Source of the DNA: an uncultured cyanobacterium
GTDB taxonomy: Bacteria > Cyanobacteriota > Cyanobacteriia > Cyanobacteriales > Cyanobacteriaceae
Reading direction: 5' to 3'
Assembly: GCA_963710605.1 (NCBI GenBank)
Contig: CAVQBA010000006.1
Span: 128,001-192,000 of the forward strand
Length of the DNA: 64,000 bases
Part shown: positions 727 through 18,947 of the stretch, in pieces
Layout: each line of letters opens with the position of its first letter
How positions within the stretch are numbered: the stretch's first letter is position 1
Notes under the pieces: generated by a model
What the model saw: the letters and a program-made list of their open reading frames with translations, nothing else
Databases searched by the model: none
What the model was told of the DNA's origin: nothing
Translations under genes and position numbers: made by a program

Positions 727-1794
727 ATGGTGTTTACTGCTAAGTATCAAAAATATAGTTTAAAATTTAAACGTCCTAGTGGTACTTCTCGTGGCATAAT
801 GACCACTAAAGATACTTATTTTGTTTTCCTTAAAGATAGTAATAATCCTAACAAAATTGCGATCGGTGAATGTGGTTTATTAAAAGGATTAAGTCACGAC
901 GATCGACCTAACTATGAAACTAAACTACAACAAGTTTGTCAGCAAATCAAACAGATTAGATCACTAGAAGGAATCAATCGTTTGTGTTTGAGTTTGTTAG
1001 ATTACCCTTCGATTCGTTTTGGAGTAGAAATGGCGTTTCAAGATTTAGTAATGGGTAGCCAACGTATTTTTTACGATAATTATTTTACTCAAGGAAAACC
1101 AATCCCGATTAATGGTTTAATTTGGATGGGTGAAATTGAGTTTATGCGTCAGCAAATTATCAAGAAAATAGAAAGTGGTTTTAGTTGTTTAAAATTAAAA
1201 ATAGGGGCGATCGATTGGGAAACGGAGTTACAATTAATAGCAAGTATTCGTCAAGAATTTTCAGCCAATGACATTGAAATTAGAGTTGATGCTAATGGTG
1301 CTTTTTCTCCCTCCACTGCTTTAGAAAAGTTAGAGCTTTTAGCAAAGTACAATTTACATTCGATCGAACAACCGATTAAACAAAATCAATGGCAAGAGAT
1401 GGCTTTATTGTGCGATCGAACTCCTTTACCAATAGCCTTAGATGAAGAACTAATTGGCATCAACAATCCAGAAGAAAAAGATAAATTAGTAAACTTTATT
1501 TCACCGCAATACCTAATTTTTAAACCTAGTTTAATTGGTGGTTTTAAAGCTACTCAAGAATGGATAGATATAGCAAATGAAAAACAAATCCCTTGGTGGA
1601 TAACCTCAGCATTAGAAAGTAATATTGGATTAAATGCGATCGCTCAATTTACAGCTAATACCAACAATAAAATGCCACAAGGATTGGGTACGGGGCAGTT
1701 ATACACAAATAATATCGACTCTCCTTTAGAAGTAAAAGCAGGACATCTTTACTATCGCCCAAACCTAAAATGGAATTTATCTTCTTTACACTAG
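727..1794 (+). CDS. menC: o-succinylbenzoate synthase (enolase superfamily)
   Basis: KLKIG, RVDANG, IEQP, IALDEE, KPSLIGG, TSALES motifs. Confidence 0.85.
   Translation: MVFTAKYQKYSLKFKRPSGTSRGIMTTKDTYFVFLKDSNNPNKIAIGECGLLKGLSHDDRPNYETKLQQVCQQIKQIRSLEGINRLCLSLLDYPSIRFGVEMAFQDLVMGSQRIFYDNYFTQGKPIPINGLIWMGEIEFMRQQIIKKIESGFSCLKLKIGAIDWETELQLIASIRQEFSANDIEIRVDANGAFSPSTALEKLELLAKYNLHSIEQPIKQNQWQEMALLCDRTPLPIALDEELIGINNPEEKDKLVNFISPQYLIFKPSLIGGFKATQEWIDIANEKQIPWWITSALESNIGLNAIAQFTANTNNKMPQGLGTGQLYTNNIDSPLEVKAGHLYYRPNLKWNLSSLH
1215..1780 (+). repeat. Direct repeat copy 1 (menC 3' half)
   Basis: Nearly identical to 6213-6780, with scattered substitutions and a divergent last ~25 nt. Confidence 0.95.
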
Positions 1795-2097
1795 TGATGA
1801 TTAAGATTGATATAGATTAGTGATACATACCTAATTAATGTGACACATTTTTAAACAGAAATAGTTTATTTTCTGTCTGAATTTTGGGCATTCTAATAAC
1901 ATATCTCATTCTAGATAAATAGAAATATCAGATCGAGATAAAAAGCGATCTATGAAATCAGAAATTAACATGGTGTTAAAGAAAATATCACTAGTTAGTT
2001 ATCAAATGTAAGGAAACAACAAGTTATTTTGATGGTTTTATTTTTCTGGCAATGATTAGTATATGGATTACTAAAATTTTATAACTAGGATAAGTTC

Positions 2098-5000
2098 ATG
2101 ATAGAAAATACCAATAACAATGAGATTATTATCGAAATTTCAAAAAATCTTAAGAAAAAACAAATTGAGCTGATTAAAATAATGTCAGAAGATAAAATCA
2201 AAATAGATTCAAGTATTTCGATTTTATCTGAGTCTCCAAAAGAATTGATTAAAAATTCAACAAAAAATGTAAAAACTAGAATTATTAATTTACTTTACAA
2301 ACTGGAAAAACAAGAAATAGTCAAATCAGAAAATAATATATTTAGCTTAACTGAGTTAGGTCAAAATATTGCTGAATATTTAGAGAAAAATCAAATTCTG
2401 AATAAAGAAAAAAGAAGCTCTTCCCGTCAACTTCAAAAACAAGAAGTTCAAAAAAAAAGGAATGAATTTCTTGAACTATATAAACAAGGCTTGAGTTATC
2501 AAGATATAGGTAATAAACATCAAATTTCTAGAGAAAGAGTTAGACAAATCTTAATAGACAATCCTACTTTTCATGAATATAGAGAAGAACAAGAATTAGC
2601 TAAAATTCAAGCCCAAGAAGAAAAAGAAAAACAAGCTGAAGAAAATTTTTACGAACGAAGTATTGCTTTTCTTTATCCAGAAAAAGTCGATCTGCTCTGG
2701 GATTATGAAAAAAATGGAAATCTTCAACCTGATGAAGTTATCGCAGGAAGTGTAAGTCAATACATATGGCTCAAATGTCCTCTCGATCGATATTCTTGGA
2801 AAAAAAAACCTAACGATATTACAACTAGTTGGTCAAGATATGGAACAAGTGGTTGTCCCAAATGTGCTGGTAAAACAAAAAAAATACAACAAAGACCAAA
2901 ATTAAAAGATGCTTATCCTGATTTTGTCCAGCAATATTGGGATTATGAAAAGAATGATGAATTAAATATTTATCCAGAAAAAGTTAAAACTGGTAGTAAC
3001 AAAAAAGCATGGTTTAAATGTTCTGTTGATGGCAATGAATGGGAAAGGATAATTCATTCAATGGTGGCTCAAAATTGGTCAAAAGGTAATGGTGGTTGTA
3101 GTGTTTGTAATGGTACTCAGGATAGAAAAAAAAGTAAGTGGACAAGAGCTAATCCTGTGGCAGTAGATTTTTCTGAAGAAGTGGCTAAATATTGGCTTTA
3201 TGAAAAAAATAATGAATTAAAGCTCAATCCTAATAAATTAACAACTGGTTCTAAGAAAAAAGCATGGTTCAAGTGTCCTCTCGATCAACATGAATGGGAG
3301 GCATCTATTACAGCTATTGCTAAAACTTCTTGGAAAAAAGGTAATAGTGGTTGTCCTGCTTGTAGAGGATGGATTGCGGCTGAAACTACTTCCTTAATTG
3401 CTCTTTATCCCGAATACATACAACAATATTGGGATTATGAAAAAAATGATTGATTAGGTTTGTATCCAGATCGATTAACAAAAGGTACTAATAAAGAAGC
3501 ATGGTTTAAATGTTCTATAGATGATTACGAATGGAAAGCTCGAATTTATTCAATTATTAAAGGTTCATGGAGTGTCGGAAATAGTGGTTGTGTTAGATGT
3601 AGCAATCGTTGGACAATTGAAGCAATCCGTCAATTTGTAGCTAGTTTAAAAGAACATATTCCTAACTTAACACCAGCAGAACGTTATAGAATATTTGAAC
3701 AATCAGGTATTTTAAATACTCAAAATAAAGAAGGTCTTACAATTGTAAAAGATATTATTAAAGGTAAATTATCGGGAGCTAAATTAGGCGGATTTCTCAG
3801 AGGGGAAGAAACAAAAGAAGATAACTTAGAAAATAGTTTTGATAATAATCTAAATGCTGATGAAGAATTACAAACCGTTGATGATGATCCTTCTCATCTT
3901 TCCAAACATACTTTTCATAAAGATACTGAAAATGCGGAAGAAGAAACTATAGAAAATGAAGATTTACCAAAAATTCATGTACAAAAAAGCCTAGAATTTC
4001 TTAATAGTAAAGTAGTTGCATCTTCAGATCGAGAAGCAGTTGATTTCTTTATTGCTTCCCGAAAAAATCGCATTTGGGCAGAAGTTTTTGAAGATGAGTC
4101 CGCAGTCGAAGGTTTAGAAGAATTTACCGATGAAGGTTATGGCTATCAAGTAAGAGATCAATTTCTTGATGAATATTATCAAGCAAAAAATATGCAAACT
4201 CCTCAAGGTTGGGGTTTTAAAATCAATGGGAAAATAACACCTCCTAACTTAATGCAGAAAGTCTCTGCGGTGCGATTAAATAATGCCAAAAGAATGCTCA
4301 ATTTATCTTTAACTGGAACAGGTAAAACCATTGGTGGAATTTTAAGTAGTCGTATTATTGATGCTAATTTAACTATTATTATTTGTCCTTTTGATACTGT
4401 TAGTAATTGGCATAGTGAAATCAAAAAAGTTTTCCCCGATAGTAAAGTTACAACTAAAAATTTTAGTCCTTATTGGGAAACTATAAAAAATGGACATCAT
4501 TATATGATTTTTAACCATGAAATGTTCCAACAACCCAATACAGCAAGTCGTATTCGTCAACTATTAGAAAAATATCAAATTGATTTAATCATTGTTGATG
4601 AAATTCACAAATGTAAACAAAGAAGTCAAAATCCTTCTAAACGCCGTCAAATGATTATGGGATTAATCACCAATGCCAATGAAATTAATCCTAATCTTCA
4701 TGTTTTAGGGATGAGTGCCACACCAATTATTAATAATCTCAAAGAAGGCAAAAGTTTAGTTGAATTAGTCTCAGGAATAGAAAGAAGTGATTTAGGAGAA
4801 AAAGCCACAACTAATAATTGTATGAAGTTACATCAGGCTTTTGTAACTTTAGGCATTCGCTCAAGGGTAAAACCTAAAATTAAAATTGATAGAATCCAAA
4901 TTCCTATTGATATTTCACATTTAGTTGATGAAATTAGAGAGGAAGGAAAATCTGTTCTCAAAATGGAGCAAATTTTAACCCGTGCTAAAATACCGACTAT

Positions 5001-6171
5001 TTTAGAGCAAATACGACCTAAAACTATTATTTATACTCATTATGTAGAAAGTATAGTTTCTCAATTAAAAGAAGCAATTGAAACTGAAGGTTGGACAGTT
5101 GGCTTTCATTTAGGAGGCAATAAAAGCGGTTATGATGGTTTCGTTAATGGTTCAACGGATATTTTAATTGCTAGTAGTGCAATGGCTGTAGGGGTTGATG
5201 GTTTTCAGAAAGTTTGTAGTCGTTTAATTTTAAATATTCCACCTTGGACAAGTGCCGAATTAGAGCAATTAGAAGGGCGTTTAAATCGCCAAGGACAAAC
5301 ATCTAATATTTTAACAATTGTTATGCCTGTGACTTATGGTCACGATAAAGAAGAATATTGGAGCTGGGATGAAGGAAGATTGGCACGATTAGAGAATAAA
5401 CAAACTATAGCTGATGCGGCGGTTGATGGTATTATTCCTGAAGGGCAATTAAGAACTCAATCTCAAGCTTTTCGTGATTTGAGAAAATGGCTAGAAAGAC
5501 TTAAAACAGGAAAACAAAAATCAATTATCAGACCTAAAATATTTGTACCTTTACCTGAAGACAATCCGAGTGATGTTAAACGTCGTTATGCTCGTTATGG
5601 TGATTTTAGCAAGATGAATGCTCGTTGGAATACAAGTTATAGTCATACACTTTACCAACGTTTACAAGAAAATCCTGAAGAATGGATGCAATATCATACA
5701 CTTTACCAAGAAGCCAGAAAAACATGGAATCTTATTCCTTACAAAGAAACGATTAAATGGCTCGAACAACGTTCAGATTTAATAGTAGGAGACTTTGGTT
5801 GTGGAGAAGCTTTTATCGCTAAAGAATTAGCAGATAAACATACAATTCATAGCTTTGATTTCATTGCAATTAATGATTCTGTAACAGAATGTGATCTGAA
5901 AAATGTACCATTAGAGGATAATTGTCTGGATATAGCAATCTTTAATCTATCTTTAATGGGTTTAAATTACGAGCAATATATTATTGAAGCCTCCAGAACT
6001 TTAAAGTTAGATGGGCAACTTTGGATTTACGAAGCAATATCGAGAATCAAAGATATAAATAATTTTATTCAAAAAATTCAATTTTTTGGTTTTAGTATTA
6101 TCAAAAATATCGAAACTAACAAATTCATACATATTTGGGCAATTAAGTCAGAGTTTAAAAATTACAGTTAA
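2098..6171 (+). CDS. Multidomain protein: N-terminal HTH(s), 4 Zn-ribbon (DUF4379-like) repeats, SF2 helicase, C-terminal Rrp8-like SAM methyltransferase; interrupted by an in-frame TGA at 3451-3453
   Basis: ORFs 2098-3453 and 3460-6171 are in the same frame. Sigma70-r4-like LSYQDIGNKHQISRERVRQIL; WDYEKN...W.KC...GC..C repeats; TGTGKT, DEIH, MSAT, QLEGRLNRQG; DFGCGEA...HSFD...LSLMG. Confidence 0.8.
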
Positions 6172-6212
6172 AACAAACTTTTTCTTTTACTAAATAAATC
6201 ACGATCGTTAAT

Positions 6213-6783
6213 TTGGGAAATTGAGTTACAATTAATACCTAGTATCCGTCAAGAATTTTCAGCCAATGAAATTGAAATTAGAGTCGATGCTAATGGTGCT
6301 TTTTCTCCCTCCACTGCTTTAGAAAAGTTAGAGCTTTTAGCAAAGTACAATTTACATTCGATCGAACAACCGATTAAACAAAATCAATGGCAAGAGATGG
6401 CTTTATTGTGTAGTAAAACTCCTTTACCGATAGCATTAGACGAAGAACTAATCAGCATCAACAATCCAGAAGAAAAAGATAAATTAGTAAACTTTATTTC
6501 ACCGCAATACCTAATTTTTAAACCTAGTTTAATAGGTGGTTTTAAGGCTACTCAAGAATGGATAGATATAGCAAATCAAAAACAAATCCCTTGGTGGATA
6601 ACCTCAGCCTTAGAAAGTAATATAGGACTAAATGCGATCGCTCAATTTACAGCTAATACCAACAATAAAATGCCACAAGGATTGGGTACGGGGCAGTTAT
6701 ACACAAATAATATCGACTCTCCTTTAGAAGTAAAAGCAGGACATCTTTACTATCGTCAACAACTTCAGTGGGATTTATCTTAA
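6213..6783 (+). pseudogene. menC: Duplicated 3' half of menC (no 5' part); direct repeat copy 2
   Basis: ORF 6397-6783 is nearly identical to MenC residues ~225-350; DNA similarity extends upstream to ~6213. Confidence 0.9.
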
Positions 6784-6801
6784 TTATCGATCGATAATTA
6801 A

Positions 6802-7008
6802 GAATTTAATAATAATTCACAAAAAACTAGTAAAACAATGCAAATAGAATTAGAAAGATTTCGCTTAGAGTATCAAACTGCATTACAAAAATTTTCGGCA
6901 ATAGCAAATATTTGTGACAAACTGAATCAAACTTCGATCGGTTTATACGAAACTTCAAAATATCTAATAACTACAGCTAACGAGTTAAAAGATAGTAACG
7001 ATCGATAA
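6802..7008 (+). pseudogene. Probable ZorA C-terminal helical-tail remnant (EFNNNSQKTSKTMQIELERFRLEYQTALQKF...LKDSNDR)
   Basis: Open frame 6802-7008 (ATG at 6838), amphipathic helical composition, directly upstream of the zorB-like gene. Confidence 0.4.
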
Positions 7009-7052
7009 TAGTTGAAATTAAGCTAATTTTTATTTTATTTAAGGGAGACAAA

Positions 7053-7718
7053 ATGACAGGTTTTTTTGATTATGAAACTGAAGAAGAATTATTAGAAGAG
7101 GAAGATTCTGGTGTATGGCTTTCTGTAGGAGACTTAATGTCAGGATTGTTGATGTTTTTTGCTTTGTTATTTATTGCGGTATCCGCTCAACTGGTTGAAT
7201 ATGACAACATTATCAAAAAAATTCCCTTAGCTATTGTTGAAGCGACTAAAAATATTGAGGGAGTAAAAGATAGTATTAAACTTGAACCTAATGGCGATTT
7301 GAGCTTAGATGATAAAATTCTTTTTGATGAAGGGCAAGCTACTTTAAAACCTGAAGGAAAAAACTTTTTGACTAACTTTATTCCTGTATATACTGAAACT
7401 ATTTTTAGTGACGAAATGTTTGACCAGCAAGTATCAAGAATTATTATAGAAGGTCATACTAGCTCAAATGGTTCAGAAAAGCAAAATATGGAGTTAAGTT
7501 TTCAACGGGCATTAGCGGTGAGTGAATATATTAAAACGATCGATTTTCCTTATCAAAATCAATTAAAACAAAAATTGTTAGCCGCAGGCAGAGGAGAAAC
7601 TGATTCTAATCAAACTTTTGACGATTCTAAAGACAGAAAAGTGATGTTACGTTTTCAATTTAAAAGACAGGAGTTAACAAATGTATTCCCAAATCAAACC
7701 AATAATTTAAATCCGTAA
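7053..7718 (+). CDS. OmpA/MotB-family protein, ZorB-like
   Basis: TM segment WLSVGDLMSGLLMFFALLFI with conserved Asp; OmpA motifs IIIEGHT, NMELSFQRA, AAGRGE, DRKV; AAGGGAG RBS. Confidence 0.75.
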   Translation: MTGFFDYETEEELLEEEDSGVWLSVGDLMSGLLMFFALLFIAVSAQLVEYDNIIKKIPLAIVEATKNIEGVKDSIKLEPNGDLSLDDKILFDEGQATLKPEGKNFLTNFIPVYTETIFSDEMFDQQVSRIIIEGHTSSNGSEKQNMELSFQRALAVSEYIKTIDFPYQNQLKQKLLAAGRGETDSNQTFDDSKDRKVMLRFQFKRQELTNVFPNQTNNLNP

Positions 7719-13620: not shown

Positions 13621-15351
13621 ATGAACGATATCGAACAGGTAAAAAAACTAATTACACAGCCAAAACTAAGTCTTTTTTCTGAACAATTACGAGAAATTGC
13701 TCAAAACCCTAATACTTCTGCTGAGATATTTACTCTATTAGTTGAAGAATTTAATAAAACAAATAGTTTATTTTATCAAGAAATTACGAAGTCGATCGCT
13801 CTCAATCCTAATATACCTAGCGAACTTCTTGAAAAACTACTGATGTATCATTCCGTTGAGGTATTGAATAACCCGACTATTTTGAGGAGATTAAAAGAGC
13901 AACCCAATTTACTTTATTTGCTCGAAACAAATTATTCTAGGGTTAAAACTCTAATTGAATATAATTATGATGTACCTAACTGGTTTCTAGAAAGATTAAC
14001 TAATTTAAAAAACTTTACCGTTAAAAAAGAATTCGATCGAGAAATTACTACTATAGCCCAACAAATATTAGAGGCAAAAAACGAAAGTACACCACCAGCA
14101 AAATTGGTAGAATTAGGTGAAAAATCAACTTTTAGTATTCGTCGATTTGTTGCTCTCAATCCTAACACACTTGTCGATACTTTGATTGAAGTAGCTTATG
14201 CTTTTCCTAAAGAAGTATTAAATAATCCTGTTTTTGATTTATTAATTTTAGAGGATGCAGATTTCATTAAAAGAATACCGCCCGAGACTTTTATCGAATT
14301 ACTTTGTCAAGAAGAAATGACATCTAGTTTTCTTGCTTTAGCGATTGAACATCCTGAAGATAGAGTAAAATCTCATATAGCAATAGATCCTGCAACATCA
14401 CCTAAAACATTACAAAGATTATTAGAAAACATCTTAGCAGGAAAAGGTTCGCTTTCATTATCTAGGTCAATTGCTAATAATCCGAATATATCCACTGAAA
14501 CATTACAATTGTTAACCGATCGAAGTAAAGATGTAACTTTGGCTAAACATACAATTTATTGTTCTAAGATTAAAATTCCTACTGAAACGATCGAACAATT
14601 GATTGAAAATGGGGATGAAAAATTACTTGAAGCGATCGCACTTAATCCTAATACTCCAACACATATAATAGAAAATTTATGTTCTTCTTATATAAATAAA
14701 AGCTATACAAATAAAAATTACAAAATTATTTATGCAATTTCTCAAAACCCGAAGACAAATAGTCAAATTTTAGAATCGATAACTAATAAATATATTTCAG
14801 ATAATAACCCGCATTTAGTTAGAGATTTATTACTGAATATTGCTAGTCATGATAATGCTTCTTCACAAACTCTTGAAAGGTTAGCAGATTATCCCGATGA
14901 GTGGGCAACTGAAGCTGTTGCGGTAAATTCTAATGTTTCTGAAAAAACGATCGAGAAAATACTAATAAAAGTTGTTAATTCATTATTTGCTCAAAAATCT
15001 CAAGAAGAAAAACTAGCTTTATTGGTTTTAGCATTTGATGAATTGCAAAAAGCAAAAAATACTCAAACATCTATCTCTTTATTGGAACAATATACTAAAC
15101 ATCGCTGGCGTGCAATTCGTTTGGCAGTTGCTAAAAATCCGAGTACGCCTGATTCTATACTTCAACAACTGGCTAACGATGGATATCCTAAGGTTGCTGA
15201 ATGGGTTGCCAAACATCCGAATTGTTCTAGCTACACTTTAGACATTCTCAATCAATACCCTGCAACTTACATACACCAGATAGCCTTAAAACATCCTAAC
15301 ATCTCAAGACTAACCAAACAAAGATCTTACAGTGGAAAATCATATACATAA
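13621..15351 (+). CDS. Leucine-rich-repeat-variant (LRV/HEAT-like) protein
   Basis: Repeated IA.NPNT/S....L..L units; internal second N-cap (QQILEAKNESTPP). Confidence 0.8.
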   Translation: MNDIEQVKKLITQPKLSLFSEQLREIAQNPNTSAEIFTLLVEEFNKTNSLFYQEITKSIALNPNIPSELLEKLLMYHSVEVLNNPTILRRLKEQPNLLYLLETNYSRVKTLIEYNYDVPNWFLERLTNLKNFTVKKEFDREITTIAQQILEAKNESTPPAKLVELGEKSTFSIRRFVALNPNTLVDTLIEVAYAFPKEVLNNPVFDLLILEDADFIKRIPPETFIELLCQEEMTSSFLALAIEHPEDRVKSHIAIDPATSPKTLQRLLENILAGKGSLSLSRSIANNPNISTETLQLLTDRSKDVTLAKHTIYCSKIKIPTETIEQLIENGDEKLLEAIALNPNTPTHIIENLCSSYINKSYTNKNYKIIYAISQNPKTNSQILESITNKYISDNNPHLVRDLLLNIASHDNASSQTLERLADYPDEWATEAVAVNSNVSEKTIEKILIKVVNSLFAQKSQEEKLALLVLAFDELQKAKNTQTSISLLEQYTKHRWRAIRLAVAKNPSTPDSILQQLANDGYPKVAEWVAKHPNCSSYTLDILNQYPATYIHQIALKHPNISRLTKQRSYSGKSYT

Positions 15352-15372
15352 ATCAAATTAGACATAAAAGTA

Positions 15373-17409
15373 ATGAATATCGAACAACAAATAAAAGAAG
15401 CTCAAGACGAAACAACGCCACCAGAAAGATTACGAGAGTTAGCAGTTTCCTCTAATTATCTTGTTCTTGAAAGTATAGTCAAAAATCCTAATATACCACC
15501 TGACGTTATACAAAATTTGGCTGGGCAGTTTCCTCAACAAGTTTTTGAGAATCCTGCTTTAGAATTATTATTATTAGAAACTCCCGATTTACTTTTTAAA
15601 ATAAACTCTTACTCTCTCCAAACAATAGCCCAAACAACTACTTGTGTTAAAACTCTAGCGATATTAGCTAGAAATGAAGATGACAGAGTTCGTGGGTATG
15701 TAGCACGAAACCCAAAGATAACGATCGAAATTTTAGAAAAATTGGCTCTCGATACAGGTACGAATATCAGACAAGCAGTAGCAATAAACCCTCGTACTTC
15801 GGTTAAATTATTACAACAATTAGCTTTCGATGCAGATTTTCATGTCAGAGAAGCTGTAGCACAAAACCCTCATATTTCAATTGAATTATTACAACAACTA
15901 GCTCTCGATTCTAGCGGTTGGGTAAAAGGTTATGTTGTCAGCAATCCTAAAATTCCAATTGAATTATTACAACAACTAGCTTTTGATACTAATGCCGATG
16001 TCAGACAAGTAGTAGTATATAACCCCAAGGCAACACCCAAAATTTTAGAAAAATTGGCTCTTGATACAGATGCGGGTGTCAGACAAAGAGTCGCACAAAA
16101 TCCTCAGACAACAACTGAAATCTTAGAAAAATTAGCTCTTGATTGGAATTATAAAGTCAGACAAATAGTTGCACGAAACCCTCAGATAACGCCTGAAATA
16201 TCCAAAAAATTGGCTCTCGATGGGAATCATAAAGTAAGAAAAGCAATAGCACGAAATCCTTATATTTCAATTAAAATCTTACAACAAATAGCTCTTAAAC
16301 CTTTGCAAGACTCAACAATACCAGTAAAAGTAGCGATTAATTTTCAGACCTCAACTGATATATTAGAACTACTAGCTAGGTATTACAGTCAACGTGTAAG
16401 ACAAATGGTAGCAAGAAATCTTAAGACACCAATAAAAACCTTACAACAACTAGCTCTCGATTCGGATTGTGTAATAAGAAAAGAGGTGGCTTTCAATCCT
16501 CATACTCCAAGTAAAACCTTAATAAAATTGGCTCGTGATTCTGAGGCGAAAATTAGAGAAATCATTGCTCTGAATCCTAATACTTCAACTGAAATCTTAA
16601 AAAAATTGGCTCGTGATTCTGAGAAACAAATAAGGGAAATCGTCGCACTTAATTCTAATATCACGATCGATATTTTACAACAATTAGCTCGTGATTCTGA
16701 ACATACAGTCAAAGTTGCTGTAGCGTTACATTCAAAAACAACGATCGATACTTTACAACAATTAGCAGATGATTTGCATTATAGAGTAAGAGTAGCGGTG
16801 GCTAGAAATTCTAATACCACAACCCAAATATTGGAACAATTAGCAGATGATTATCACGAGCGAGTAAGAATGGCTGTTGTTAAAAATTCTAATACAGCGA
16901 TCGAAATATTAGAAAAATTAGCTAATGATTCTGATAGTGGAGTAAGAATTGCTATTACCCGAAATCTTAATAAGCCGATAGCTTTCGATTCTGATTATGA
17001 GGTAAAATATACACTTACAAAAAATACTTTGACCACAAGTCAAATGTTACAACAAGCGGCTAAACATAGTAGCTATGAAGTGAGGATTGAAATTGCTAAA
17101 AATCCAAACGTCACGCTAAAAATATTAAAACAACTAATCTCAGAACAATTAGCTGAAGATCGTTATGGTAAAGTTAAAACGCAAGTGGCACAACATCCGC
17201 TCACAACAGTAGAAATGTTAGAAACATTAGCAAATGATTATCATAGCGGAGTAAGAAAAGCTGTCGCCAGAAATCCTAACACACCGATCGAAATATTACA
17301 AGCATTATCTGGGGATGAAATTGCTTATGTAAGTAAACACGCTGAAGCTAATTTCTTTCGATTAATTATGATTAAGAAAAATGTTTGTTCGTCTAATACT
17401 ATAAGTTGA
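15373..17409 (+). CDS. LRV/HEAT-like repeat protein with many regular 26-aa repeats
   Basis: (D....VR..VA.NP.T..E.L..LA)n. Confidence 0.85.
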   Translation: MNIEQQIKEAQDETTPPERLRELAVSSNYLVLESIVKNPNIPPDVIQNLAGQFPQQVFENPALELLLLETPDLLFKINSYSLQTIAQTTTCVKTLAILARNEDDRVRGYVARNPKITIEILEKLALDTGTNIRQAVAINPRTSVKLLQQLAFDADFHVREAVAQNPHISIELLQQLALDSSGWVKGYVVSNPKIPIELLQQLAFDTNADVRQVVVYNPKATPKILEKLALDTDAGVRQRVAQNPQTTTEILEKLALDWNYKVRQIVARNPQITPEISKKLALDGNHKVRKAIARNPYISIKILQQIALKPLQDSTIPVKVAINFQTSTDILELLARYYSQRVRQMVARNLKTPIKTLQQLALDSDCVIRKEVAFNPHTPSKTLIKLARDSEAKIREIIALNPNTSTEILKKLARDSEKQIREIVALNSNITIDILQQLARDSEHTVKVAVALHSKTTIDTLQQLADDLHYRVRVAVARNSNTTTQILEQLADDYHERVRMAVVKNSNTAIEILEKLANDSDSGVRIAITRNLNKPIAFDSDYEVKYTLTKNTLTTSQMLQQAAKHSSYEVRIEIAKNPNVTLKILKQLISEQLAEDRYGKVKTQVAQHPLTTVEMLETLANDYHSGVRKAVARNPNTPIEILQALSGDEIAYVSKHAEANFFRLIMIKKNVCSSNTIS

Positions 17410-17636
17410 AGCTACTTTTGATTGATTTTATTTTATGTCGGTTTTGTCATTAAAAATAAGGCATAAATATTTATAACTATAGTCGATCGATCGTATGACT
17501 TAACTTTTAAATTGTAAGTTAGACTGACTCGATCGATCACAATTAAAAAATTTGTCGGCAACATCTACTTCAATATTGCATAAATTCTAGTTTGCGTCGG
17601 GAAGAATAATTAAAGTCGATCGAAAACTGAAAATTA

Positions 17637-18947
17637 ATGATAAATATCGAACAACAAAGAAACGAAGCACAAAATGAAAGCATATCACCACAAAGATTAC
17701 GAGAGTTAGCAGTCTCAGAAGACTTTCTTACCCTTGAACATATAGTTAAAAATCCTAATGTACCACCTGATGTATTACAAAATTTAGCCGGACAATTTTC
17801 CGAACAGACTTTTAAGAATCCTGCGATCGATTTATTGTTACTAGCAAACCCTGATTTACTCTCTGGAATTAGCTCTGACTCTCTTGAAACAATCGCTCAA
17901 ACAACGGCTTCAACTAATATTCTGGCTGTATTAGCAAGAAATCAGCATTGGAGAGTTCGTTGGGGAGTAGCAAAAAATCCAGAGACGACAATAGAAATCT
18001 TAAAACAATTAGCTCAAGATTTTAATCCTTATTCAAGACAAGAAGTAGCAAAAAATCCAAAAATTGATGAAGAAATAATTACAAAAATTCTTTTTTACAA
18101 ACATTCTATTGAAGAACTTAACGCTACTCATACGAAAGGAAAACGACCTATTACACTAACTATAGATGATAAAGAATATCTAATTGAACCATGTGCCAGT
18201 TTACATCTAGATGATAATCCTCTGGGTAATGTTGCTAGTAATCCTAATTTATCTTTAGATATTATTGAGCAGTTAGTGTCAAACATACTTAAAATATTAG
18301 AATGGGCATGGGGTATAAATTTTGTTACAGGTATTGTTTCAAATCCAAATATTCGTGTTTCTACATTAAGATGGTTATCAGGAGAAGAATATTTAAAAAT
18401 TCACAATGATGCTGTATTTGAATATCATATAAATAGTCTTGCATCTTATAAAGCTAACTGCGATCCTTTTCTGAAAAAAAAATCATATCAAGAAATTGTT
18501 AGTTATCTAAAAAAAGATTGGAGCGTACAAGAAGGTGCTAGTAATTCTGCGATGAGATTAATTGGTCAATTATACTGGGCAATTGTACAAAATCCAACCA
18601 CTCCCGAAGATTTAAAATCTGATTTATTACTTAAATTAACCAGCGATAAGATAATCGTTTCAGAAGTTCGTTATCACATTGCTAAATCTTTGGATGTACC
18701 AGTAGAAATCCTTAGAAGATTAGCAAAAGTCGATCCTCATCCTCATAAAGCATTGGCGGAAAATCCTCATACTCCTAGTGATGTTTTAGGACAACTAGCA
18801 AATCATAAAGATAGTGATATGCGTAAAAAAGTGGTACAACATCCTAGTACCTTACCTGAAACCTTAGAAAAATTGTCTGAAGACGAAGATGAACAAGTTA
18901 GTAAAGCGGCAAAAGCTAATATTTCCAGATTAAAACTTGCAAACTAG
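17637..18947 (+). CDS. LRV/HEAT-like repeat protein with a non-repeat central insert
   Basis: First ~130 aa closely similar to the 15373 ORF; divergent middle; terminal repeats. Confidence 0.8.
   Translation: MINIEQQRNEAQNESISPQRLRELAVSEDFLTLEHIVKNPNVPPDVLQNLAGQFSEQTFKNPAIDLLLLANPDLLSGISSDSLETIAQTTASTNILAVLARNQHWRVRWGVAKNPETTIEILKQLAQDFNPYSRQEVAKNPKIDEEIITKILFYKHSIEELNATHTKGKRPITLTIDDKEYLIEPCASLHLDDNPLGNVASNPNLSLDIIEQLVSNILKILEWAWGINFVTGIVSNPNIRVSTLRWLSGEEYLKIHNDAVFEYHINSLASYKANCDPFLKKKSYQEIVSYLKKDWSVQEGASNSAMRLIGQLYWAIVQNPTTPEDLKSDLLLKLTSDKIIVSEVRYHIAKSLDVPVEILRRLAKVDPHPHKALAENPHTPSDVLGQLANHKDSDMRKKVVQHPSTLPETLEKLSEDEDEQVSKAAKANISRLKLAN

Follow-up and report, generated by a model that had tools for sequence, protein, structure and literature searches.

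A widespread bacterial protein family joining zinc ribbons, a Snf2-type motor and an RRP8-type methyltransferase: a candidate DNA-tracking enzyme of genome conflict

A gene at 2098..6171 in a 64,000-nucleotide stretch of DNA from an uncultured cyanobacterium (the window; all features given below are on its plus strand) was found to encode a member of a widespread yet unstudied protein family, in which zinc ribbons, a chromatin-remodeller-type motor and an RRP8-type methyltransferase are fused. We propose that this family consists of single-chain, ATP-driven, DNA-tracking methyltransferases acting in a genome-conflict system similar to restriction-modification, and give this reading a probability of about 0.5. 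No paper on the motor-RRP8 methyltransferase family was found in the literature.

Reading frame and state of the gene

The gene forms one frame of 1357 codons, which ends with the natural stop TAA at 6169-6171. An earlier note, made from the letters of the stretch alone, had described such a single frame, and its only in-frame stop is the TGA at 3451..3453 (codon 452). Translation with table 11 splits the frame into two ORFs, ORF1 at 2098..3453 (451 aa) and ORF2 at 3460..6171 (903 aa). Intact homologues comprise 1,340-1,355 aa and were found in numerous cyanobacteria, in Acidobacteria and on plasmids; they are 62-66% identical, a degree of conservation that extends across phyla.

The enzyme in this genome is probably inactive or split. 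The TGA interrupts the fourth zinc ribbon, where it falls in a variable alignment column, and decay is also seen in other copies, of which one is broken into three pieces (L040) and another into six (L057). A dead or split gene without present function is opposed by the sequence downstream of the TGA, in which all residues invariant in a 15-sequence alignment are kept. Since these residues persist, the stop may have arisen only very recently, may be tolerated or may reflect a base-call error. The family also includes natural forms of ~880 aa that lack the N-terminal module, which suggests that the 903-aa part could work if translated. Loss of function would concern the copy in the window and not the family as a whole; it is compatible with any functional reading of the family and does not exclude one.

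Domain composition

The C-terminal domain (5590..6147) is an RRP8-type class I SAM methyltransferase. The Pfam profile Methyltransf_8 (PF05148; cut-off 27 bits) was matched with 151.4 bits (E 4.4e-44) and the human RRP8 structure 2ZFU with E 1.1e-31 (ORF2 residues 722-892 versus chain residues 16-185). The characteristic motifs are DFGCGEA (motif I, residue 1232; 5791-5811), HSFD (residue 1251) and LSLMG (residue 1284); DFGCGEA is invariant in 15 sequences. The likeness to Rrp8/nucleomethylin proposed in the earlier note is thus confirmed by the profile and by sequence similarity to the solved structure, and an identity as small-molecule methylase was rejected. The note had also separated the domain from N6A, N4C and C5 DNA methyltransferases. 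In agreement with this, a motif scan of the protein detected neither [DNS]PP[YFWH] nor a PC dipeptide. Nuclease or other effector domains were not found by Pfam, by fold search or by the domain scan of relatives.

In eukaryotes RRP8/nucleomethylin is nucleolar and chromatin-associated. The C-terminal ~190 residues of the window protein align with it (RRP8, 2ZFU) across the whole catalytic domain including motif I. In contrast to Rrp8, a stand-alone nucleolar rRNA m1A methyltransferase, the domain here forms the C-terminus of a bacterial protein of 1,357 aa that also has a predicted DNA motor and DNA-binding modules. RRP8 makes m1A645 in yeast 25S rRNA, the motif I glycine is required for SAM binding by yeast Rrp8, and rRNA, not DNA, is the substrate of the only relatives of the domain characterised so far (PMC3553958).

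The region at 4195..5517 forms a Snf2-type ATPase core according to a structural model (pLDDT 88.6). It contains motif I (GTGKT, residue 740; 4315-4329), motif II (DEIH, residue 834; 4597-4608), motif III (SAT, residue 873; 4714-4722) and motif VI (QLEGRLNRQGQ, residue 1057; 5266-5298). The ATPase and SAM motifs are all invariant among 15 aligned sequences. Pfam reported ResIII (40.4 bits), DEAD (34.9 bits), the SNF2-related profile SNF2-rel_dom (PF00176; 31.6 bits, above the cut-off of 24.9) and Helicase_C (23.2 bits). In a Foldseek search of the PDB with the model, all 50 listed matches were Snf2-family proteins (E 2.5e-18 to 2.8e-15), among them Ino80, BRG1, Chd1, CSB, ISWI, Mot1, SsoRad54 and RapA. 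Ino80 was the best of those listed (2.5e-18, TM 0.67), and the better superpositions reached TM 0.6-0.68. Because the listed matches are only Snf2-type dsDNA translocases, the modelled ATPase is predicted to be a DNA motor of this type, and an RNA helicase identity was rejected. Of the SF2 helicase described before, the motifs stood but the label helicase did not, and the supposed nucleic-acid sensing is replaced by DNA tracking or remodelling.

The motor is preceded by two conserved all-helical linker domains (3592..4302) with a disordered acidic stretch between them (~3814-3966). The AlphaFold2 model of the linker had a pLDDT of 72.5, with model residues 79-129 below 50, and a PDB search with it gave no match at E<=0.001.

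The N-terminal part comprises a Sigma-70 region-4-type helix-turn-helix (HTH) and a zinc-ribbon array. The HTH (2464..2553, residues 123-152; Pfam PF04545, Sigma70_r4) is marginal in the window copy, its 24.0 bits falling just short of the cut-off (24.1); homologues are clearly above it with 35 bits, and its assignment in the earlier note can be kept. DUF4379 (PF14311) was matched in three stretches of ORF1 (113.6 bits) and once in ORF2 (27.7 bits), and thus four treble-clef zinc ribbons are present at 2680..3606 as direct repeats, singly at ~2680-2871, 2914-3114, 3169-3369 and 3406-3606. The motif W.YEKN occurs at residues 201, 281, 366 and 445 and C..C at residues 253, 334, 419 and 498, so the array consists of repeated PF14311 units with their Cys pairs kept. 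Both the four ribbons and the order of the domains had been recognized correctly from the letters. On Vsr-type homing endonucleases, tandem DUF4379/DUF723 units are described as the modules that bind DNA (PMC12350094), and a giant-virus restriction endonuclease also bears units of this type (PMC5513546). In both kinds of enzyme such modules confer DNA specificity.

The composition bears on the question whether the protein acts on RNA, as an m1A-forming methyltransferase of rRNA, tRNA or nascent transcripts whose Snf2 module would act on RNA polymerase like RapA. We consider this very unlikely. Snf2 motors track dsDNA, and a ribosome-biogenesis factor would not be expected to be patchily distributed and mobile or to have the restriction-type partners described below. 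Furthermore, the N-terminal HTH, DUF4379, HHH and INT_rpt modules of the family are of kinds reported to bind DNA (PMC12350094). The RNA reading is favoured by the methyltransferase domain, which is closest to the enzyme making m1A645 (PMC3553958), and by weak RapA matches (NCBIfam 1.3e-6; Foldseek 8spg 2.7e-15).

Family size and distribution

The motor-methyltransferase core defines a larger family. A profile search yielded 8,316 matches with E<=1e-3, and 1,107 cluster representatives remain when E<=1e-30 is required. Among the 150 best matches, the majority cover the linker as well as motor and methyltransferase, whereas roughly one in four aligns to part of the profile only and is probably a truncated entry. 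Methyltransf_8 was detected in all 34 relatives scanned for domains. Their N-termini vary, with DUF4379 in 11, Sigma70_r4 in 4, DUF723 in 3, INT_rpt in 2 and HHH_6 in one.

The 43 loci collected are from cyanobacteria, Acidobacteria, Ca. Blackallbacteria, Methylococcaceae, Thiomargarita and Desulfuromonadales. The distribution is patchy: of 401 genomes sampled from the cyanobacterial phylum, 12 carry the gene, that of the window included. Plasmid copies were found in Crinalium, Rhodococcus and Leptolyngbya Cla-17, and three plasmid records contain a full-length match; the copy on Rhodococcus pSID adjoins FtsK/SpoIIIE and SSB genes. Among 50,697 phage records no match was detected, and IMG/VR yielded one locus only.

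Origin of the gene in the window

The gene sits inside a 4,998-bp insert bounded by 592-bp direct repeats of the menC 3' part. The left copy (1215..1806) corresponds to the 3' portion of menC, which is intact here (727-1794), plus 12 further nucleotides; the right copy (6213..6803) is a displaced menC 3' fragment. By blastn 553 of 592 positions are identical (93%) and the distance from start to start is 4,998 bp; the right repeat contains the ORF 6397-6783, whose product shares 94% identity with menC residues 225-352. The repeat homology ends at 1806/6803. A spacer (1807..2055) follows and then a leader (TTAGTATATGG..., 2056..2097), which aligns with partial similarity to the conserved ~36-nt leader TAGTACATAGGCACCTCTAATTG. 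In one cyanobacterial subclade the alignments place the left boundary of the shared unit at this conserved leader. No promoter-like site could be recognized between 1780 and 2120.

The sequence CGATCG occurs once in the gene and six times in menC, just as counted in the earlier note. Bins of 4,074 bp in the window contain 8.65 on average, and the one with the gene has the lowest count of 120 bins. In 30 related genomes the DNA of the gene had no match except one 39-nt stretch. Repeats, missing matches and CGATCG depletion support that the gene is foreign in this genome. This part of the recent acquisition suggested before holds. The GC3 of the gene (0.168) equals that of the host; hence either the donor resembled the host in its low GC content, or the gene has been resident for some time. 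It arrived within the 4,998-bp insert, probably through recombination via the carried menC fragment.

Mobility and integron cassettes

Between copies in distant cyanobacteria, DNA identity reaches 86-90% but is confined to the gene, ~36 nt before it and <100 nt after it. These alignments document movement between distant bacteria as a single-gene unit. In two copies (L027 and L041) an attC-like hairpin follows the stop, with fold z values of -3.56 and -2.57, respectively. The attC-like site family, an alignment of 14 sites chosen by eye from pattern matches, has 17 pairs, nine of them with compensatory changes; the raw attC pattern was not enriched over the reversed control. Directly upstream of the L041 copy, and in divergent orientation to it, lies an N-terminal fragment of an integron integrase, and the gene is the first unit beside this intI remnant. 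In the window, no hairpin is seen in 6160-6230, which is no more stably folded than its shuffled versions (z +1.64). An integron integrase was not detected in the window's own genome (84.9% complete), in which the best TIGR02249 match, at 38.5 bits, stayed below the cut-off of 265. Judged from these features, some cyanobacteria carry the gene as an integron cassette; elsewhere it is plasmid-borne or inserted at the 3' ends of housekeeping genes.

In the window and in 4 of the 31 loci with sufficient flank, a second copy of the upstream gene's 3' end lies on the far side of the insert. Such duplications, and a transferred unit that is essentially the gene alone, might be expected of a selfish gene whose protein itself catalyses the movement. 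We regard this as extremely improbable: searches detected no domain of nuclease, recombinase or transposase type, and the integron route is documented for two copies. Moreover, other small cassettes (HNH, Uma2) at the same carB site share the bounding remnants, and thus the insertion machinery is not gene-specific. The repeated 3'-end remnants at insertion sites merit attention in their own right.

Gene neighbourhoods

Downstream of the insert, the window contains ZorB of type I Zorya (7053..7718; PADLOC ZorB1 3.1e-69, 231 bits; Pfam OmpA) and a short ZorA remnant of 76 nt (6820..6895), identified by an 82% DNA match inside the ZorA ORF of a relative (G004). ZorA-ZorB-ZorC are carried by a relative at the matching place. 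Of the type I set (ZorA, ZorB, ZorC, ZorD), ZorB is the sole intact gene remaining at the locus. The Zorya-like remnant, from which an anti-phage function of the adjoining gene had been suggested, is therefore real and represents a decayed type I system.

The gene itself was not classified by PADLOC and could not be assigned to a known defence system; PADLOC and NCBIfam gave partial helicase-core matches only. The best PADLOC match was DrmD with 35.3 bits, limited to residues 568-647, and the DrmD scores of 35-40 bits compare with an NCBIfam cut-off of 610. Across 18 loci of close homologues no conserved partner or neighbour was found, and 11 of 148 neighbours matched PADLOC at E<=1e-10, several of them generic (UvrD, kinase, GlgB). 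The close homologues are mostly solitary and chromosomal, adjoin housekeeping genes and have no transfer apparatus nearby. Among the distant relatives, restriction-type nucleases or methylases are adjacent in 7 of 38 loci. Tight operons are formed with an N6_N4 methylase and an Mrr_cat nuclease (L091), with a PD-(D/E)xK nuclease (L092) and with an MmeI-like type IIL enzyme (L113-L115), of which L113 also adjoins McrBC. L120 neighbours a DpnII endonuclease and L124 an HNH nuclease. With the integron cassettes, these restriction-type neighbours and the Zorya remnant beside the gene in the window, the genomic context leans towards genome conflict, and an anti-phage role of the family appears plausible.

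Comparison with known systems

Single-chain Type ISP restriction enzymes combine motor and methylase in defence. The nuclease domain and the N6-adenine methylase motif (D/N)PP(Y/F) of Type III and Type ISP enzymes were not found in the window protein, in which neither a nuclease family nor [DNS]PP[YFWH] was detected. In DISARM, motor and methylase (DrmD Snf2 helicase and DrmMI) also occur in a defence setting, and DrmD is the top PADLOC/NCBIfam match. However, this match covers ~80 residues of the C-terminal helicase lobe, and there are no DrmA, DrmB or DrmC partners and no nuclease domain. HmaA, an anti-T4 protein from a defence-gene insertion hotspot, likewise bears a Snf2 motor with a C-terminal effector, described as a PD-(D/E)xK nickase (PMC11232893) in contrast to the methyltransferase found here.

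Fungal DNMT5 also joins a Snf2 ATPase to a methyltransferase, but of cytosine-5 type. Its SNF2 ATPase step was reported to be essential for DNA methylation (bioRxiv 10.1101/2020.01.05.895227), and ATP hydrolysis and methylation are coupled in a single chain (also bioRxiv 10.1101/2021.10.01.462825). Methyltransferase class, domain order, role and kingdom differ from the window protein, and homology is proposed for the Snf2 core only.

SWI2/SNF2-methylase dyads, with DarB as archetype, are likewise composed of a Snf2-type motor and a methyltransferase in one polypeptide. They are described as frequent in phages, plasmids and conjugative elements, with counter-restriction as proposed function (PMC5512222). 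By analogy, the present family could methylate incoming or resident mobile DNA as a self mark against host restriction, and thus be anti-defence. The plasmid copies in Crinalium, Rhodococcus and Leptolyngbya Cla-17, that of pSID beside FtsK/SpoIIIE and SSB, would fit this role. We nevertheless hold it to be unlikely: the present family, without a match in the 50,697 phage records and with one IMG/VR locus, is mostly a solitary chromosomal cassette beside housekeeping genes. In addition, the dyad's methylase is of N6-adenine type, unlike the RRP8-type domain without DPPY/NPPY.

Many defence systems are reported to reside in integron cassettes (bioRxiv 10.1101/2024.07.02.601686, 10.1101/2024.07.02.601719), and the L041 and L027 copies share their organization of short leader, one ORF and attC-like hairpin. 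With ~4.2 kb, the gene is an unusually large integron-type cassette in cyanobacteria; the window copy differs by having no attC, its genome by showing no intI above the cut-off. In 10.1101/2024.07.02.601686 no cassette combining helicase and methylase is mentioned, neither helicase nor SNF2 occurring as a term.

Proposed mechanism and significance

According to the DNA-tracking reading, HTH and the four DUF4379 ribbons would dock the enzyme on DNA. The Snf2-type motor would then translocate along the duplex or distort it and in this way open a base to the C-terminal RRP8-type methyltransferase. By homology, methylation would be expected at N1 of adenine, an atom of the Watson-Crick face. In its biology, the gene would be an accessory, horizontally mobile single-gene unit in the conflict between host and invading DNA. 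A more far-reaching form, which we think quite unlikely, is a new class of ATP-dependent DNA methyltransferases with Snf2-aided formation of m1A in duplex DNA, serving as replication-blocking immune effector or as new self mark; eukaryotic RRP8/nucleomethylin would be its descendant.

Fusions of motor and methylase recur in restriction-modification, phage counter-restriction and eukaryotic epigenetic maintenance. The family described here swaps the usual DNA methylase for an RRP8-type domain otherwise known from eukaryotic rRNA modification. As the family is large and conserved and no paper on it was found, an intact homologue is a cheap and well-defined target for biochemistry. If DNA is methylated, this would be a new chemistry in bacterial genome conflict and may hint at a prokaryotic origin of nucleomethylin.

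Domain composition and reading frame

The large gene (2098-6171, forward strand) is one frame of 1,357 codons with a single interruption, a TGA at 3451-3453. With translation table 11 it is read as two ORFs of 451 and 903 aa in the same frame; menC, ZorB and other adjacent ORFs are uninterrupted under this table. Pfam searches identified four DUF4379 treble-clef zinc ribbons (113.6 bits over three stretches and 27.7 bits for the fourth, which is split by the stop codon), ResIII, DEAD, SNF2-related and Helicase_C domains and a C-terminal Methyltransf_8 domain (151.4 bits). A sigma-70 region-4-type HTH was marginal (24.0 bits, cut-off 24.1) and is clear in relatives. All motifs named in the earlier note are present. 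Its assignment of the C-terminal domain to the RRP8 type, and not to N6A, N4C or C5 DNA methyltransferases, was borne out as well: apart from the Methyltransf_8 match, the domain matched the structure of human RRP8 (PDB 2ZFU) with an E-value of 1.1e-31, and a motif scan of the protein found neither (D/N/S)PP(Y/F/W/H) nor a PC dipeptide.

The helicase of the earlier note stands as an SF2-type ATPase according to Pfam. The ATPase core was modelled from 34 sequences (pLDDT 88.6), and by this model it is predicted to be a DNA-tracking motor and not an RNA helicase, because all of the 50 Foldseek matches listed were Snf2-family dsDNA translocases (E 2.5e-18 to 2.8e-15). Ino80, BRG1/PBAF, Chd1, SMARCAD1, CSB, ISWI, Mot1, SsoRad54 and RapA were among these matches, with a TM of about 0.6-0.68 in the better superpositions. 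For the linker of 241 residues between ribbons and ATPase, a model from a 17-sequence alignment (pLDDT 72.5) predicts two all-helical modules with a disordered acidic stretch between them. Foldseek detected no PDB fold match of this model at E<=0.001, hence no cryptic nuclease turned up, and a search of the ESM Atlas with the linker region gave no usable match. Regarding the ribbons, tandem DUF4379/DUF723-like units are reported to serve Vsr-type homing endonucleases of phage group II introns as modular DNA-binding domains (PMC12350094), and a giant-virus restriction endonuclease is reported to carry four DUF4379 units (PMC5513546).

The TGA lies at a variable column of a 15-sequence alignment. 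Since every invariant residue downstream of it is kept, the nonsense change appears to be very recent, a base-call error or tolerated. The copy in the window is probably inactive or split. A promoter scan detected no site upstream of the gene (3.1 expected) and one around the stop codon (1.6 expected).

Protein family

In a word-indexed search the 903-aa part matched 302 proteins. Each of the best 120 showed 70-73% identity with 99-100% query coverage; most have 1,330-1,360 aa and some about 1,500 aa, and they originate from Leptolyngbya, Microcoleus, Phormidium (plasmid), Nodosilinea, Trichocoleus and Acidobacteria MAGs. The full-length alignment of 15 sequences gave 62-66% identity to the read-through of the window's gene, and about 480 columns were invariant, including all ATPase and SAM motifs.

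A family profile of linker, motor and methyltransferase, run on 1.84 billion cluster representatives, resulted in 8,316 matches with E<=1e-3, of which 1,107 reached E<=1e-30. Of the best 150, most cover profile positions of about 48-896; roughly a quarter are only partial and are probably truncated entries. Their lengths range from 311 to 1,802 aa, those spanning the profile having about 880-1,800 aa. Methyltransf_8 was found in all 34 family members that were scanned, and a nuclease family in none of these 34. Their N-termini carried DUF4379 (11 proteins, 1-7 copies), Sigma70_r4 (4), DUF723 (3), INT_rpt (2) or HHH_6 (1), and nothing recognisable in the others. As the methyltransferase is constant and the N-termini are varied, the conserved unit is linker, Snf2 motor and RRP8-type methyltransferase with interchangeable DNA-binding heads.

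Relatives in two cyanobacterial genomes of 1.7-1.9 Mb (G248 and G422) lie in open frames of 1,285-1,614 aa and match only the linker and Snf2 part, over profile positions 50-697 and 134-688. The motor is found with a different C-terminal domain, too. Relatives of the methyltransferase domain alone comprised 136 short proteins, many on contigs <5 kb and probably fragments; a few on long contigs are named 'RRP8 family class I SAM-dependent methyltransferase'. Among the 120 of these 136 that were listed there was no eukaryotic source name, most entries being nameless. In public records the family is named only 'zinc-ribbon domain-containing protein' or 'DEAD/DEAH box helicase family protein'. No published work on a zinc-ribbon/Snf2/RRP8-type fusion was found; supplementary cassette lists of integron papers could hold the family.

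Distribution and mobility

With one genome scanned per species, 43 loci were found, which span many cyanobacterial orders, Pyrinomonadales/Blastocatellia, Ca. Blackallbacteria, Methylococcaceae, Thiomargarita and Desulfuromonadales. At E<=1e-50 a match was present in 12 of 401 sampled genomes of the cyanobacterial phylum, the window's own included, and in none of the six other sampled members of its family. Except for one 39-nt stretch, no DNA match inside 2098-6171 was detected in 30 related genomes, and the own genome holds one copy. The gene is a single long ORF at 23 of the 25 loci examined; it is broken into three pieces in L040 and six in L057.

Three pairs of copies share high DNA identity: L040 and the Microcystis copy L041 (90.3%), L024 and the Leptolyngbya plasmid copy L027 (88.1%), and the copies of a Synechocystis MAG and Pseudanabaena (86.8%). 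The homology extends from about 36-84 nt before the ATG to 0-97 nt after the stop. Because it is limited to the gene and short flanks in distant cyanobacteria, the large gene moves as a single-gene unit. Full-length relatives were found in three plasmid records; the gene was also found on one IMG/VR contig and in none of 50,697 phage records. At two loci, L039 (4552-8985) and L123 (615-2808), the large gene is directly preceded by a DUF6262 gene and by tyrosine recombinase genes, two in L039 and one in L123. This arrangement suggests carriage on a multi-recombinase element.

Insertion at the 3' end of menC

In the window, direct repeats of 592 bp bracket a unit of 4,998 bp holding the large gene. 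The left repeat (1215-1806) is the 3' part of the intact menC; the right one (6213-6803) is a menC fragment that has been displaced and shares 94% identity in protein sequence. The repeats are 93% identical, and CGATCG adjoins both junctions of the insert. The simplest account would be that menC on the chromosome recombined, by one crossover, with a circle carrying a related menC fragment and the large gene. Later gene conversion between the copies is suggested, since their differences cluster at both ends with long identical blocks in the middle. Set against menC of the same genus, the left copy matches at 16 sites, the right copy at 12 and neither at 11, which does not single out the native copy. 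The earlier note had seen a sign of recent acquisition in the rarity of CGATCG. The depletion itself was confirmed (one in the large gene, with an average of 8.65 for bins of equal length across the window; its bin is the lowest of 120), but the GC3 of 0.168 matches the host genes.

Similar repeats, in which the housekeeping gene upstream has its 3' end copied just past the insert, were found at 4 of the 31 loci whose flanks are long enough to compare, all in Pyrinomonadaceae MAGs: carB in L033, L036 and L044, and urocanase in L032 (74-198 nt, 84-95% identical). Within 9100-19560 of L033, four carB-3' remnants lie between small cassettes (the large gene, HNH with a 133-aa ORF, Uma2, and a 239-aa ORF), and in one remnant the final codons of a second large gene, otherwise lost, are preserved. 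These loci look like serial insertion at the 3' end of one gene, with inserts lacking an integrase. An integron array at the carB of L033 was considered and rejected: the repeats between the cassettes are copies of the carB 3' end and not attC sites, and the intact intI of this genome sits on a different contig.

Further repeats and gene rows were observed in the window. An element of about 160 nt upstream of menC (480-655 and 683-728) occurs at no fewer than 8 places in the own genome with 81-87% identity; pieces of 30-60 nt recur across the genomes of many relatives, in some cases as tandem copies. The element resembles a dispersed family of small repeats. Three consecutive genes of LRV/HEAT-repeat proteins (576, 678 and 436 aa) are located at 13621-18947.

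Relation to integrons

In L027 and L041 the stop codon is followed by an imperfect hairpin of about 85 nt, built as GCTAAC-spacer-stem...stem-spacer-GTTAGC, with folding z-scores of -3.56 and -2.57, respectively. Raw counts of the attC-like pattern CTAACAA-N50-80-GTTAG in five genomes were not above a reversed-pattern control. From 50 matches in two cyanobacterial genomes, 14 non-identical sites were hand-picked by shared internal features; five of them are on the same strand of one contig within 24 kb. When aligned, the 14 share a terminal helix of invariant CTAAC/GTTAG and an inner helix in which some bases are unpaired; 9 of 17 predicted pairs have compensatory changes. We take this to be the anatomy of attC sites. 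Contig C8 of the Leptolyngbya genome G031 has five or more attC-like sites on the same strand in a 24-kb stretch (about 2,666,000-2,690,100); integron-integrase scores in this genome stayed below the cut-off, making this a candidate attC cluster without integrase.

Directly upstream of the gene in L041, on the opposite strand, a 98-aa ORF matches integron-integrase models only (TIGR02249, 72 bits, or 109 bits for a longer frame; residues 14-105 of 315). In L041 the large gene is the first unit next to a decayed intI. L021, L022 and L015 of the same subclade have kept the CTAAC box about 20 nt past the stop and lost the rest of the hairpin; at this place CTAAG is found in L040 and TTAAT in L024. 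An attC remnant in the 3' flank of the window was discarded: a TAAAAC...GTTAAT pair is visible by eye, but its fold is no better than that of shuffled sequences. An integron route is thus documented among the relatives and not for the window's copy, whose genome (84.9% complete) gave no integron integrase above the cut-off.

Genomic context and defence

As claimed in the earlier note, the large gene adjoins a Zorya-like remnant, a decayed type I system at 6820-7718. ZorB is intact (3.1e-69), ZorA is reduced to a 76-nt remnant and a short ORF, and neither ZorC nor ZorD was found at this locus; a relative carries ZorA-ZorB-ZorC. In two relatives no menC occurs within 12 kb upstream of Zorya. Hence, the adjacency of menC and Zorya is specific to the window's genome and was not taken as ancestral.

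The gene had been proposed as a defence factor, with association of its homologues with defence genes as a corollary. PADLOC and NCBIfam gave only partial helicase-lobe matches for the large gene (DrmD with 35-40 bits, also BrxHII and RapA). Among 148 neighbours at 18 loci of close homologues there was no conserved partner gene, and only 11 had a PADLOC match at E<=1e-10; the specific ones were PbeC, a type I REase fragment, a PtuB-like HNH, PDC-S17/S03 and a 2TM effector. These neighbours are mostly housekeeping genes (FtsW, phycobilisome proteins, carB, urocanase, DUF1501), with scattered transposases, tyrosine recombinases, PIN/MazF, HNH and Uma2 genes.

For the wider family, a profile of the minimal forms of about 880 aa retrieved 71 metagenome loci, 38 of which have a near-complete gene and were analysed with the two nearest ORFs per side (98 proteins scanned). 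Restriction-type nucleases or methylases are neighbours at 7 of the 38. In L091 an N6_N4 DNA methylase and an Mrr_cat nuclease form a tight three-gene row with the large-gene relative, and in L092 a PD-(D/E)xK nuclease adjoins it. An MmeI-like type IIL enzyme is encoded immediately upstream in L113, L114 and L115, with McrBC further out in L113; DpnII endonuclease and HNH nuclease genes are near the relatives in L120 and L124, respectively. Tyrosine recombinases occur at 5 of the loci. On marine contigs (L124-L131, L140) a minimal form of about 878 aa has several paralogous INT_rpt proteins on both sides (a cluster of 23 across loci), together with a conserved 103-aa ORF; tyrosine recombinases are found near it in L124 and L128. 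The INT_rpt proteins may be separate, exchangeable DNA-binding subunits. Taken together, the contexts point to a restriction-modification-like genome conflict, in which the enzyme may stand on either side.

Proposed function

We propose that the zinc-ribbon/HTH head would bind DNA, the Snf2 motor would track or distort the duplex, and the RRP8-type domain would then methylate an exposed base. By analogy to Rrp8 (PMC3553958) the methylated atom might be N1 of adenine. DNA would be the substrate, and the biological outcome may lie in genome conflict. Coupling of a Snf2-type motor with methylation, as proposed here, resembles the SWI2/SNF2-adenine-methylase dyad described for polyvalent proteins of phages and plasmids with the archetype DarB (PMC5512222), and fungal Dnmt5, for which the SNF2 ATPase step is reported to be essential for methylation (bioRxiv 10.1101/2020.01.05.895227). 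The family is best filed under a motor-methylase theme that is already known, but with an unexpected class of methyltransferase and cassette-like mobility.
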